In this document: positions 4,430 through 57,944 of the stretch, in pieces
How positions within the stretch are numbered: the stretch's first letter is position 1
Layout of the letters: each line of letters begins with the position of its first letter
NCBI GenBank assembly: GCA_963799485.1
Contig: CAWCXJ010000009.1
Location: 32,001-96,000 of the forward strand
Reading direction: 5' to 3'
DNA: 64,000 nt
DNA from: an uncultured Trueperaceae bacterium
GTDB taxonomy: Bacteria; Deinococcota; Deinococci; Deinococcales; Trueperaceae
Made by a program: the position numbers and the translations under genes
The notes under the pieces: generated by a model
What the model was told of the DNA's origin: nothing
What the model saw: the letters and a program-made list of their open reading frames with translations, nothing else
Database searches by the model: none

Positions 4430-5277
4430 CCTTTGTGAACACTGGAACGCCCACCTGTTAGCGACCAAACTCATCGAACTGGCGATTGTCACAACGGTAT
4501 CAAGCGAGACTGTTCGAACCAGGCTAAAAAAAACAAACTCAAACCTTGGTTGAAAGAGCAATGGTGTATAGCTCCAAAGCAGAGTGCTGAGTTTGTTTGT
4601 GCGATGGAAGATGTGCTTGCGGTGTATCACCGACCCCATGACCCCAAACGTCCGCTGGTATGTTTCGACGAGGGCACAAAACAGTTGACCAAAGAAATGC
4701 GTTTAGCTTTACCGACTCGACCTGGCGAGATAGCTAAATACGACTATGAATACGAACGTAACGGGACGGGCAACCTGTTTATGTTTTTCGCGCCTTTAGC
4801 GGCTTGGCGGCACGTCAAAGTCACAGAAAGACGCACCATGATCGATTTTGCACGGTGTATGCGTGACTTAGTTGACATCCATTTTCCCAAAGCCGAGAAG
4901 ATTATTCTGGTTATGGACAACCTCAACACCCACAAACTCGCGTCGCTTTACAAAGCTTTTGAAGCTGCTGAAGCAAGACGTATCATCGAAAAGTTAGAAC
5001 TTCACCACACGCCTAAACACGGTTCCTGGCTCAATATGCGGGCAGGCCCGGAAGGTGCTGTTTTGCCCAAGACGGCAGAGATTGAACTCAGTGTGTTACA
5101 GCGGCAATGTCTCAAAGCGCGTATACCTCAGCAGCAGGCCTTGAACGACAGTCTCAATCTCTGGCAAACGGTTCGCAACACCTCCAAAGCTAAAGTGACC
5201 TGGCGCTTTACAACTGAGGACGCACGTATTAAGCTCCATAGTCTCTATCCGTCAATAGATGTTGGCTGAACTACTAG
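4430..5277 (+). mobile_element. IS630-family element, 5'-truncated by IS3; transposase with A-run frameshift and a 36-bp in-frame insert
   Basis: HTH tail ...SSETVRTRLKK with an A-run at about 4526-4534 leading into LKPWLKEQWCI; CFDE, VMDNLNTH, GSWLNM..AEIE; ends ...ACTACTAG. Confidence 0.85.
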
Positions 5278-31300: not shown

Positions 31301-32989
31301 ATGATGCCTAGTACACCTGCCCCCGACGACTTCGACCGGAGTAGCGAGGTCTCGCTCCGTGACCTCTATCTCGTGTTGCTACGGGGTCTGCCCTTTATTT
31401 TGCTTTTGGCGCTCCTGGCAGGGGGCGTCGCGTACTTTCTCAACGCACAGCGCAAACCTGTTTTTGCCGCCGAAAGCACCGTCCTCGTAACCCCGCCGCC
31501 GATTCAGATTCAAGGCGACGAAAACATCTCGTTTAGCCCCATCAACGAAGTTTCGTTTCAGACGTACGAAACCCTGGCGCGGAGCCAGACGGTTTTACGG
31601 GACGCGGTCTCGCGCGTTGAAGATGTGCAGATTTCCCCCGCCCAACTTTCGGCCTTGGGTACGCTGCGTCAGCTTTTCGGCCCGCTCCGCGTCGGTGACG
31701 TTGCGCCCCTGTCGGTTATCCACCGTGTCCGCAATGCCGACCCTGAACGGGCCGCGCTCCTTGCCGACGCGTGGGCGCAGAGCACGCTTAAAGCGGTACG
31801 CGAGTCGCTCTTCTCGAGCCTCCGCCCGGTCGACGAGACGACCACGCGGGAGGTCGCGCGGCTGCAAAACGACGTCGAAGCGGTCGAGGCGCAGGTGCAG
31901 CGGTTTGCCGCGCAAGACAACGGTCCACTTTTGGAGGCCGAACTCGAGGGTTTGACCCGCCAGATTACCGACGGGCGCGAACGGCAGGGCGAGTTGACGC
32001 GCGAAATTGCCGCAACCCAAGCGCGTATTCGCGCCCTGGAGCAGCAGATAGGTTCGGCAGGCGCAGCAAACGCTCCGGGCGCAGCAGGGAATAGTGCAAC
32101 AGGGGACAGTGCGGTGCTGAGCCCGGCTTTTCTGGCTGTGCTGGGCGCGCAGGGCGCGGTCGAGGGCGCGGACGGGCTGCGCGCGCGGCCCCGGTTTATC
32201 CCCAGCGCGCAGCTCAGCCGCACCTTCGAGGCGGCGCTTGCCGAATCGGACATCCTTTCAAACCTTTTGAGGGGTAACGAAGAAGAGTTCGTCAACCTCG
32301 TCCGGGCGCTCTATACGGAGGCCGTCCGGACGCTCGCGGGCGCGCTCGCCGAAGAGCAGCGGGTGACGCAGCGCGCTACCCAAACCCAGGCGCAGGAGGC
32401 GCTCGAGCTGGCCCTGCTCGGTTACGCCAGCGCCCAGACACAAACCCAGCAGTCCCGGACGCCGCCTCAAACACAGCAGTCTCAGACCCAACCGGCTACA
32501 CCTGCGCCGCAAAGCCAGGGAACTGCCGGAACAAGCGAGAACACCGACGCGTTGTCCCTGCTGAGCCGCGCCGAACTCCGCCGCGCGCGGGTCGCGCTTG
32601 CGGGGATGCGCGCCGAACGCGCCGACCTCGAGGGTGAACTCGCGAGCTATACCGAGAGCGCCGCCGCCATTCAAAAACAGCTCGCAACGCTCGACCAGCG
32701 CCGCGACCGGCTAGACCGCGAACTCGAGAACGTCCTGGCGTCTTACAACACCGTTGCCGGACTGCAGTCGAGTATCTCGTACCTGACCGAACTCGCGCCG
32801 ACGAACGCGCGTATCTTGAGTCAGGCGTCGGTGCCGACCTCACCCGTCGGCCCGCGCCGCGCCTTTAACACCACCCTGGTGGCTGTCATGGGCGCACTCG
32901 TCGGTCTCGTCTTGGTCTTCTTACGTGCGGCGATCCGCCGTCCTCCCACACTGCCGTCTGTTACACCCACCCGAAAGGTAGATGCATGA
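31301..32989 (+). CDS. Polysaccharide co-polymerase / chain-length determinant (Wzz/GumC-like, no kinase domain)
   Basis: EVSLRDLYLVL, TM1, coiled coil, Pro-rich PTSPVGPRR and TM2. Confidence 0.8.
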   Translation: MMPSTPAPDDFDRSSEVSLRDLYLVLLRGLPFILLLALLAGGVAYFLNAQRKPVFAAESTVLVTPPPIQIQGDENISFSPINEVSFQTYETLARSQTVLRDAVSRVEDVQISPAQLSALGTLRQLFGPLRVGDVAPLSVIHRVRNADPERAALLADAWAQSTLKAVRESLFSSLRPVDETTTREVARLQNDVEAVEAQVQRFAAQDNGPLLEAELEGLTRQITDGRERQGELTREIAATQARIRALEQQIGSAGAANAPGAAGNSATGDSAVLSPAFLAVLGAQGAVEGADGLRARPRFIPSAQLSRTFEAALAESDILSNLLRGNEEEFVNLVRALYTEAVRTLAGALAEEQRVTQRATQTQAQEALELALLGYASAQTQTQQSRTPPQTQQSQTQPATPAPQSQGTAGTSENTDALSLLSRAELRRARVALAGMRAERADLEGELASYTESAAAIQKQLATLDQRRDRLDRELENVLASYNTVAGLQSSISYLTELAPTNARILSQASVPTSPVGPRRAFNTTLVAVMGALVGLVLVFLRAAIRRPPTLPSVTPTRKVDA

Positions 32990-56270: not shown

Positions 56271-56933
56271 TTAATCGCCGGATGCGGCGGGTACGGCGGC
56301 GACAGGTTTATGCTCATAGTGAAACAGCCACAAAAAAAACTGCATCACCGGGCCGATAAGGACGGCAAACAGCACCGTTCCGACCCCGACCGAACCACCC
56401 AAAAGAAATCCTAGAACGAGTACCGTAAACTCGAGCACCCCCCGCGTCAGCCGGATGCTCGAGCCGAACTTTTGGGCGCTGCCGAGCACCAGGTCGTCGC
56501 GCGGCCCCGCCCCGAACTGCGCGGTGATATAGAGACCGATTGCCAGACCCGTCAGGACGACCCCTGCTACAAAGGTAATAACGCCCAGAATCCAGTCTCC
56601 TGCCGGAATACTCGGCAACCACCGCTGCGCCTCGAAAAAGTCGATCCAGGGACCGACCAGGAGCATATTGAGCGCGGTGCCGAAACCCGGACGCTGGTGC
56701 AGCACGAAAAAGCTAAAAACGATGATAAGTAAGCCGACAAGTTGGGTGACGCGCCCGAAAGGTAAACCGGTGCGCACACTCAGCCCTTCGTGAAGGGCCG
56801 ACCAGGGGTCGAGGCCGATGTGGGCGCGGAGCATCAGCGAAATGGACAAACCGAAAACCATCAGGCCGAGGTTGAGCTGAACGAGTCTGCGCCAGAACGA
56901 GGCGGTGGCAAGTGGAGTAGCAAGACGGGACAC
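56271..56933 (-). CDS. YczE/YyaS/YitT-family membrane protein
   Basis: GLDPWSALHEG, PGFGT, FGAGPRD, GGSVGVGT; start probably GTG at 56933. Confidence 0.85.
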   Translation of the reverse strand: MSRLATPLATASFWRRLVQLNLGLMVFGLSISLMLRAHIGLDPWSALHEGLSVRTGLPFGRVTQLVGLLIIVFSFFVLHQRPGFGTALNMLLVGPWIDFFEAQRWLPSIPAGDWILGVITFVAGVVLTGLAIGLYITAQFGAGPRDDLVLGSAQKFGSSIRLTRGVLEFTVLVLGFLLGGSVGVGTVLFAVLIGPVMQFFLWLFHYEHKPVAAVPAASGD

Positions 56934-57051
56934 GCCGGTCAGTCTAAGGCGGCGTTCGGGTTTTGCGGGTTGCAACGGTAACGTCCCTGGCGTTTTGCGA
57001 GCGTTAAGTATCTCCGTACTAAGAATGAAGGATGGCTTTAGCGCCGAGGAG

Positions 57052-57944
57052 GGTAATGGCTCAAGCACGAATGATGAGTCTACGCTCAAGATTGTAGCAG
57101 TGCAGAAAAAGGTGAAGACAGATGAGGTGCACTAGAACGGGCAACCTTCGGCCAGCCCTCATGGGCCTAGCTCTCTCATCGGACTTGGAGAAGGACAAAG
57201 TTTTACGGACGAAACGGGCCAAGCGTTGCCGGATGGTGTTGTTGCAGCGCTCAACGTGAGCCGTAAGTCCTGAGTCTTTGCCAACTGCTTGATGGTGTTC
57301 GGTGCAGTCTCGCTTTGCTCGGAATAGGAATGACGGTTTGATAGGCTTCCCAGAAGTCGGTGAAGCAGATACCCTGCTTGAACGCATCAGGGATAGATTT
57401 CCAGAGCTGACGACAAGTGGCGACACCTCTGCCACCAACCACGCAAGCTACAACCTGCCGCGTATGCTTGCATAGTGCTAAGCACAGGTTAAGCGCATAG
57501 CGCATTGCATCTGCGATGCTCACCTGTATCCAGCGTTTACGGTTTCTCTGACGTACAAACGACCAAAGTACCCCAAACGAAGTGGCAGGGTACATTTCAT
57601 CGAGTTCTAAATGGATAGTTTCTGAACTGCTGGGCTTAATGAGTGTGCTTGTCAGTGAAGGAAGCGTCTTGGCTTTTTTTAAGCCATTTAGTCAAGGTGT
57701 TTCGAGAGACGCCGAAAGTTCGCGCTATCCCGCGCATACTTGAACGCTCTTGATAAGCCCTGATGATTTCTTTACGCGCTTCGCTGTAGCCGAAGTTCGG
57801 ATTCTCTCTGCTCGCCTTTCCACACCCACGACACTGGTATTTCTGTTTTCCATTGGGCGCTCTTGACAAGCTGTTCGCTACCACAGTAGTAGCACGCGAC
57901 GTTGACCATACCCCTAGCTTATCAGTTCGATTTGAACCATTACC
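57052..57944 (-). mobile_element. IS1-family element, degenerate (insA/insB pseudogenes with four short inserts)
   Basis: Terminal IRs GGTAATGGCTCAA / GGTAATGGTTCAA; InsA zinc finger and HTH (KYQCRGC, SMRGIARTFGVSRNT), A7G slip site; Ins[36 protein letters not shown]. Confidence 0.88.

Follow-up and report, generated by a model that had tools for sequence, protein, structure and literature searches.

Short palindromic inserts recur in transposase genes of an uncultured Trueperaceae bacterium

Rickettsia palindromic elements (RPEs) are palindromic selfish DNA of about 100–150 nt, which lies in frame in housekeeping genes and is translated. The Nostoc-type small dispersed repeats (SDRs), 21–27 nt in length and reportedly described by Elhai et al. 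in 2008, are said to have a conserved structure, to be nested and site-specific and to occur inside mobile elements; an RNA intermediate has reportedly been proposed for them. Repetitive extragenic palindromic (REP) sequences and REPINs, which go with RAYT (Y1/HUH) transposases, form dispersed families of imperfect palindromes of 20–40 nt that are presumably processed in the form of single-strand hairpins. Some REPs are intragenic, and different REPs occupy about the same recB site in two Xanthomonas species (part of PMC3733652). Deinococcus radiodurans carries small noncoding repeats (SNRs) in 295 copies, of at least nine types and with an 'unusual mosaic structure' (Makarova et al. 1999, cited in part of PMC1978522). 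The NTS/SRM repeats are hairpins of about 30 nt, which Ssn GIY-YIG nucleases recognise in single-stranded form; they occur in hundreds of copies and flank ssnA (part of PMC11893778). Tiny hairpin repeats of this sort are usually described as extragenic. Here we analyse a stretch of 64,000 nt (the window; positions 32001–96000 of contig C9) from the genome of an uncultured Trueperaceae bacterium (3.66 Mb, 59% G+C, 15 contigs), in which a decayed insertion sequence (IS) of the IS1 family bears four small inserts, a to d. Inserts a, b and d, together with two further families that we call H36 and T27, are strongly tied to transposase genes; they are predicted to be translated and occupy the same sites in diverged copies. 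Our literature search for palindromic inserts that keep the frame of a transposase gene, whether of IS1 or of another family, returned no account of them. Intragenic REPs are already known from the part of PMC3733652 cited above; here several families are concentrated inside transposase genes.

The IS1 copy is 893 bp long, or about 760 bp once the four inserts are subtracted. It has the features of its family. InsA and InsB are joined at a run of A, the transposase is of the type PF03400 (the precomputed Pfam assignment for each of the 120 listed InsB homologues), and short terminal inverted repeats are read in the sequence as GGTAATGG.../...CCATTACC. The insA frame is of the zinc-finger/helix-turn-helix type and the insB frame bears the motifs quoted in the initial annotation. 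The inserts were defined by MAFFT alignment of the window copy with 12 paralogous IS1 copies of the same genome, and all four face empty sites in most or all of these paralogues (Table 1). When the insert columns are removed, one continuous InsB-like reading results. The alignment and the restored reading thus bear out the proposal, first made from the letters alone, of four discrete inserts, three of them (a, b and d) in frame and one (c) frameshifting. The accompanying description of three of them as hairpins is clear for two. Insert a has a 7-bp terminal hairpin (fold z −2.6, with 3 of 200 shuffles folding equally well) and insert b an outer stem, ACAGGT/ACCTGT, around two small hairpins (z −1.8 and −2.0 for the two strands), whereas the window copy of d (z +0.07 and −0.8) folds no better than shuffles and c gave no fold under shuffle control. 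Relatives of d elsewhere have a neat two-hairpin form. A search of the IS1 region with Rfam gave no match, the single sub-threshold match having an E value of 2.1. In an AlphaFold2 model of the IS1 transposase (pLDDT 82.5; D31, D98 and E126 are conserved in IS1) site a follows strand 27–33, site b is inside strand 54–60, and sites c and d are in linkers; insert a sits two residues past the conserved Asp of ELDEM. We note that the contig of a relative from a public run is 69 nt shorter across 57480–57660, the combined length of a and b, its middle being unaligned.

The segments could in principle be one-off products of repair or replication, such as filler DNA or template switches. Insert c, which is single-copy, unstructured and replaces five bases, would suit this explanation, as would the likeness between the 3′ half of a and the WSFV-coding bases beside it (TCGTTTG). 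However, a, b, d, H36 and T27 recur at different loci, and b, d, H36 and T27 are also found in other genomes. This refutes a one-off origin for a, b and d and leaves it possible for c only; as an explanation of the inserts as a whole it is very improbable. The idea of a family of tiny structured repeats accordingly stands for a, b and d, which belong to dispersed families and are not orphans, and fails for c, for which a search of the genome found neither a second copy nor a family. H36, an unrelated 36-nt element, occupies the site of c in two other IS1 copies, and this site is therefore a hot spot.

Insert a is present six times in the genome, always at the IS1 boundary ELDEM-WSFV and with 24–27 of its 27 bases identical. 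Its bearers fall in two IS1 subfamilies and their flanks are only 64–80% identical. Two intact bearers, C7:470k and C6:713k (contig and position), have diverged to a dS of 1.22 and a dN of 0.066 (synonymous and nonsynonymous divergence), yet their inserts are identical at 27/27 positions; the low dN/dS of the pair, 0.054, may predate the insertion. Other intact IS1 copies in the genome lack the insert. Of the 120 closest public InsB homologues, three proteins of the genome and two public ones (P0019 and P0051) contain the peptide YPATSFGAL, and P0060 has the variant YPAASLGAP. All other listed homologues that span site a read through ELDE[ML]WSFV uninterrupted, except P0043 and three with a substituted motif. 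On trees built with insert a removed from the data its bearers are scattered, with 7 changes (FastTree) or 6 (IQ-TREE), and the approximately unbiased (AU) test rejects a single clade of the eight bearers (lnL −232, p 1.2e-5), a group chosen after the first tree had been seen. Insert a has thus entered this one site, or left it precisely, on several occasions. High identity begins and ends exactly at the limits of the insert and the flanking exact match is only 5–9 nt, a poor substrate for homologous conversion. Either site-specific insertion or conversion over short tracts may lie behind the recurrence of a. Two candidate templates were rejected as too weak: a 9-nt complement (CGAAGTGGC), which one subfamily has just 5′ of its slippery site, and a direct match of 7 nt with the flank beside the insert. 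Two apparent matches elsewhere were likewise set aside: a 3-mismatch match in genome G090 lies in an unrelated frame without IS1 motifs, and an exact 19-mer of a, sought across GTDB, was found at one conserved Pseudomonas locus in four species, which is about chance expectation.

In IS1 subfamily B (C7:470k, C6:713k and C5:130k) a part of insert a, GCCACTTCG, is exactly complementary to CGAAGTGGC. The latter abuts the 5′ side of the A7 slippery site and is situated about 100 nt upstream of the insert. A long-range pairing of insert a around the frameshift site is conceivable from these letters, and may be chance. The A7 run itself is kept in other IS1 copies of the genome, as judged from the alignment, and is probably the place of the −1 shift from the insA into the insB frame; the frameshifting role of the IS1 A-run is known (part of the introduction of PMC12428005).

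Insert b is unique as a whole, and its ends define a family of the form CAGGT[TG]AAG - two small hairpins - [CT]T[AC]ACCTG. There are four members in the genome and 11, 5 and 3 in three genomes of another genus of the same taxonomic family, against 0–1 matches for a reversed-pattern control. The closest relative, at C6:155505, lies in an IS5-type (DDE_Tnp_1) frame. Of insert d the genome has at least eight copies. Three occupy the same IS1 site, and the remainder are in or beside IS630- and IS5-type genes. Its canonical form (CTAG-GCCC-ACTA-GGGC-CGGGC-TTT-GCCCG-TTCTAG) was found in 3 of 219 other genomes, two of the same genus and one other, where it occupies an IS3 frame, an IS630 frame, the junction of two small frames and one unclear site; the two small frames are presumably HicB/HicA-like. 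Two d-like elements are present in the genome besides these copies. One, of 39 nt, lies in an IS5-type orfA that has seven empty paralogues, and the other, of 40 nt, splits a Y1 transposase gene directly ahead of the GY motif. A metagenome scan with the 16-nt core of d gave at least 119 loci; none of the 80 examined extended past the core, and these were discarded as chance matches. In the region C1:21600–25800 mobile elements are tightly packed, an IS5-type and an IS110-type element lying together with a Y1 fragment. Its IS110-type element has three further copies in the genome that are 100% identical, and its IS5-type element, which ends ...CAACAGAGCCTAG, abuts d elements at their CTAG ends and so may insert at CTAG.

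The H36 family has the consensus GCG[AG][AG]CAGGCCCGG[GA]AGGTGC[CT]GTTTTG[TC][TC]CAAGAC, and longer forms of the type H61 exist. Together they number 12 copies in the genome. Their hosts are IS1, at three sites, and genes or remnants of the IS630 type, and one more copy (C6:537405) has no assigned context. One copy is in the window, in an IS630-type gene (Table 1), and a second copy of this IS630 with the same insert is found at C11:606. Of the 120 closest public IS630 homologues, H36 is present in the genome's own protein and one other; HGSWLN-MA-EIE is uninterrupted in 116 of the 118 others, and two gave no motif match. A public relative 92% identical to the H36-bearing IS630 is filled and one 90% identical is empty. 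The outer stem of H36 is paired in 92.9% of cells with two compensatory pairs, a covariation score reached by 8 of 500 shuffles, and two invariant G-T pairs make the hairpin strand-specific. The clearest filled/empty comparison is between two IS1 copies, C13:348467–349237 and C13:484412–485220, which differ by H36, an adjacent A>G change and two single-nucleotide polymorphisms, with both frames open. The filled copy shares H36 and the adjacent A>G change with an older filled copy at C10:22k. This pair is the sole clean recent event and could also be gene conversion from such an older copy; the earlier suggestion that the repeats are active in this lineage is thus not borne out.

T27 has the consensus TTCAGCG.AGC.CCGAGGC....CCGT and at least 16 copies in the genome. 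Its hosts are IS1, an IS3 present in seven copies, an rve/Mu-C frame that is intact and 448 aa long, a DDE_5 gene and some unknown repeats, with three of the copies in one unidentified repeat. The copy in IS3 adjoins the ESFN motif. In a set of 120 IS3 proteins T27 is confined to the genome's own, while three others have H36-like peptides and one a d-like peptide; 76 IS3 relatives have an uninterrupted motif at the T27 site.

The tie to transposase genes, proposed at the outset, is borne out genome-wide, most of the 46 listed element copies being in transposase genes or their remnants. Thirty-five fall in a repeat mask that covers 10.1% of the genome, and of the other 11 at least eight are in or beside single-copy transposase frames or recognisable remnants. 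The host genes are of the types IS1, IS3, IS5, IS21-like, IS630, DDE_5 and IS200, and many copies are in frame. Single families cross these boundaries: H36 is found in IS1 and IS630, T27 in IS1, IS3, the rve/Mu-C open reading frame and DDE_5, and d in IS1, IS630 and IS5, with the d-like element in the Y1 gene. Homologous gene conversion cannot produce such a spread. Nor are small inserts in transposases confined to this genome, since the 120 public IS1 proteins contain at least eight other small in-frame inserts, several of them at sites a and b.

Many insertion sites are near conserved motifs, as seen in IS1 (ELD-EM), IS630 (WLNM-AE), IS3 (PWQ-NGYCE), rve (VVP-DNLK) and Y1 (before GY), and in relatives also in IS5-type genes (after IIDS...) and IS6-type genes (after NNLIEQ). 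Apart from the conserved D31, D98 and E126 of IS1, we take these to be catalytic-type motifs. The inserts might then be selected because they cripple or tame the transposase, as an inactive DNA-binding protein would repress its own IS family. The position of many sites within a few residues of such motifs, an assignment that is partly our assumption, agrees with this, as does the observation that a-bearing IS1 copies have no near-identical intact duplicate (the identical pair C5:130k/C7:541k is degenerate), whereas a-free IS1 subfamilies do. However, the IS3 with T27 beside ESFN has seven copies, the IS630 with H36 has two copies and a diverged filled relative, IS1 copies with insert a or H36 keep open frames, and sites b, c and d are not beside catalytic residues. 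Selection for taming is therefore improbable as the general explanation. The initial annotation had suggested that the inserts disarm IS elements; judged from the sequence, disarming by insert a is possible, and it is contradicted for T27 and H36, whose host elements are multi-copy.

The distribution in related genomes bears on where the elements arose. Of 364 genomes of the phylum, 69 contain matches to a pattern for the 3′ arm of H36. The largest number in a single genome is 164, in a member of the Deinococcaceae, against at most 1 for the reversed control. Three loci in Deinococcaceae-type genomes look intergenic, one of them (L221, G257:C221, 1485–1700) being a head-to-tail array of a 38-nt H36-like unit. 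Six further loci were inspected by listing their open reading frames; three are inside IS5-/IS6-type frames and three are without a convincing frame. It is a real, if less favoured, possibility that the inserts are immobile passengers, which entered insertion sequences in other hosts rich in such repeats, for instance Deinococcaceae with tens to over a hundred copies, arrived in this genome inside them and came to share sites through recombination or gene conversion between IS copies. Besides the abundance and apparently intergenic position of H36 in some Deinococcaceae, three observations are in keeping with this: nearly all copies in the source genome are inside IS, the filled IS1 at C13:484k has the H36 and A>G change of C10:22k, and a contig of public run X2 is identical to the window IS1 end up to 57946 and then has a different flank, so that the same IS1 variant occupies another site in another sample and has moved between contexts. 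Against it stand the exact match of the identity boundaries to insert a, in flanks that are a poor conversion substrate, the lack of a known donor pool for a (absent from the 200 other genomes sampled in the order) and the count of T27, which occurs in 28 of 265 genomes and is highest in the source genome.

On balance we lean slightly towards REP-like hairpin elements of DNA, which would enter transposase genes, persist where they are tolerated and afterwards be spread by the IS. The elements, hairpin or double-hairpin repeats of 27–61 nt that are found across the order, would move or be copied as DNA, probably as single-strand hairpins and possibly with the help of a Y1 transposase. A copy would survive if it entered a transposase gene in frame at a tolerated position, and the insertion sequence itself would then multiply the survivors and take them from genome to genome. 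Such hitchhiking would explain why nearly all copies in the genome lie in transposase genes. An RNA-mediated route, raised in the initial annotation, is unsupported, since a whole-genome search found no RVT_1 reverse transcriptase match in a genome that is 99.99% complete. Solo CRISPR repeats were also considered and ruled out, as a simple array finder found no array. Seven Y1_Tnp (IS200-type) matches are present in the genome, five with full-length open frames; the IS200-type elements with open Y1 frames are about 0.7 kb long (C1:228069, C1:274207, C13:319422, C13:485381 and C12:2970). Their end hairpins are CCGCC-TTTA-GGCGG and CCGAC-TTTA-GTCGG (5-bp stem, 4-nt loop), comparable in size to those of the tiny elements, and they are inserted after NNAC. 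One IS200-type element directly adjoins the H36-bearing IS1 at C13:484k.

Several observations count against entry and mobility of REP-like elements. The Y1 elements have their own, different end hairpins and their NNAC target, neither of which is shared by the tiny elements. No target duplication and no common target motif were seen at the element sites or in the filled/empty pairs, and no new insertion or excision was seen in the public-run contigs. Conversion from one IS copy to another could account for recurrence at the same site, both for the six copies of a and for the two IS1 copies that share H36 and the A>G change. Insert a was absent from the 200 genomes sampled in the order, which has five families, one chance match aside, and had no occurrence outside IS1, and insert c fits no family. 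Copy numbers in the source genome are low, from 4 to about 16 per family, and neither 16-mer counting nor self-BLAST detected a high-copy short repeat there. A strict 'outer stem + two hairpins' descriptor matched 178 loci against 205 in a Markov-1 simulation, and only 15 of the 178 are in the 10% repeat mask; as the descriptor is not enriched genome-wide, the shared architecture is suggestive only. A further-reaching version of the reading that we lean towards would have a guild of REP-like micro-elements parasitic on IS, spread over at least seven IS families, usually in frame, often beside catalytic motifs and IS-borne between genomes. Insert a would behave in it like a homing element, the same codon boundary having been entered or left in several IS1 lineages, and the inserts might act as reversible switches or dominant-negative brakes. 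Taken jointly these propositions are rather doubtful.

Among described systems REP/REPIN sequences resemble the elements most in form, imperfect palindromes being found for a, b, H36 and canonical d, though not for the window copy of d or for c. The H36 pattern is moreover high-copy in some Deinococcaceae, with one sampled locus a tandem array. The differences are that REPs are expected in about 100 or more extragenic copies, whereas the present families have few copies, mostly inside transposase frames and often in frame; that H36 (GCG...AAGAC), T27 (TTCAGCG...) and d (CTAG at both ends) have no unpaired GTAG/CGTC tag, the d-like element at C1:22492 alone having GTAG...CTAC, which is paired there; and that no repeat-flanked Y1 gene was found in the source genome, its Y1 genes being ordinary IS200-type with end hairpins of their own where alignable. 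Miniature inverted-repeat transposable elements (MITEs) differ in that the filled/empty pairs here show no target duplication and a search of the genome turned up no larger element whose ends match. The SNRs are similar in being short repeats of interchangeable modules, as b, d and H36/H61 likewise keep their ends while the inner hairpins change. By their description, the SNRs are noncoding. The 16S sequence of the source genome is Deinococcus-Thermus-like, which we take to be the same group as D. radiodurans. The cyanobacterial SDRs, which are said to be confined to a subgroup of cyanobacteria, belong to another phylum (the source genome has 15 HIP1 octamers in 3.66 Mb and is not cyanobacterial) and have other sequences; in contrast to the RNA route proposed for them, the search here gave no RVT_1 match. 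RPEs are also palindromic and in frame in protein genes, the elements here being shorter, at 27–61 nt, and in transposase genes. As to Ssn/SRM, in which the repeats cluster around a cd10448 GIY-YIG gene, the genome has one small GIY-YIG frame, presumably of the YhbQ type, with no hairpin repeats beside it.

If targeting or selection were real, the repeats would form a further tier of bacterial mobile DNA, that of 'parasites of parasites', and perhaps provide a natural modulation of transposases. In annotation the inserts make transposases look frameshifted or oddly long, and as filled/empty markers they can date IS movements. The high-copy relatives are a tractable place to find the enzyme that mobilises REP-like repeats without RAYT.

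Table 1. Coordinates of the inserts and their host elements in the window.
Feature	Position	Strand	Description
IS1-family insertion sequence, decayed copy	57052..57944	minus	terminal repeats, insA/insB frames, paralogue alignment
Insert a, 27 nt (TACCCTGCCACTTCGTTTGGGGTACTT)	57566..57592	minus	in frame, read YPATSFGVL, between ELDEM and WSFV
Insert b, net +42 nt	57482..57527	minus	in frame, within KRWI-W; palindromic unit 57484-57527
Insert c, net +22 nt, replaces GATGA	57299..57325	minus	frameshifting, single-copy
Insert d, 42 nt (3-nt linker + 39-nt CTAG...CTAG)	57132..57173	minus	in frame, splits A-TG Met codon of SDE-MH
A7 slippery run (TTAAAAAAAG on minus strand)	57674..57680	minus	read directly
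IS630-type (DDE_3) transposase open frame	4439..5266	plus	PF13358, E 1.5e-20
H36 element, 36 nt (RAGPEGAVLPKT)	5038..5073	plus	in frame in IS630-type transposase, between HGSWLNM and AEIE

Diverged copies or fragments of IS1 number at least 13 in the genome; they fall into about four subfamilies and are 64–80% identical to the window copy. In the MAFFT alignment the insA of the window copy is additionally damaged by a 7-nt deletion. The bases that flank this IS1 are GAGGAG and GAGGAA, a direct repeat of at most 5 bp; the usual IS1 direct repeat is 8–9 bp. A 272-aa membrane-protein frame adjoining the element (56271–57089, minus strand) runs into the IS end, and its listed start is thus probably not genuine.

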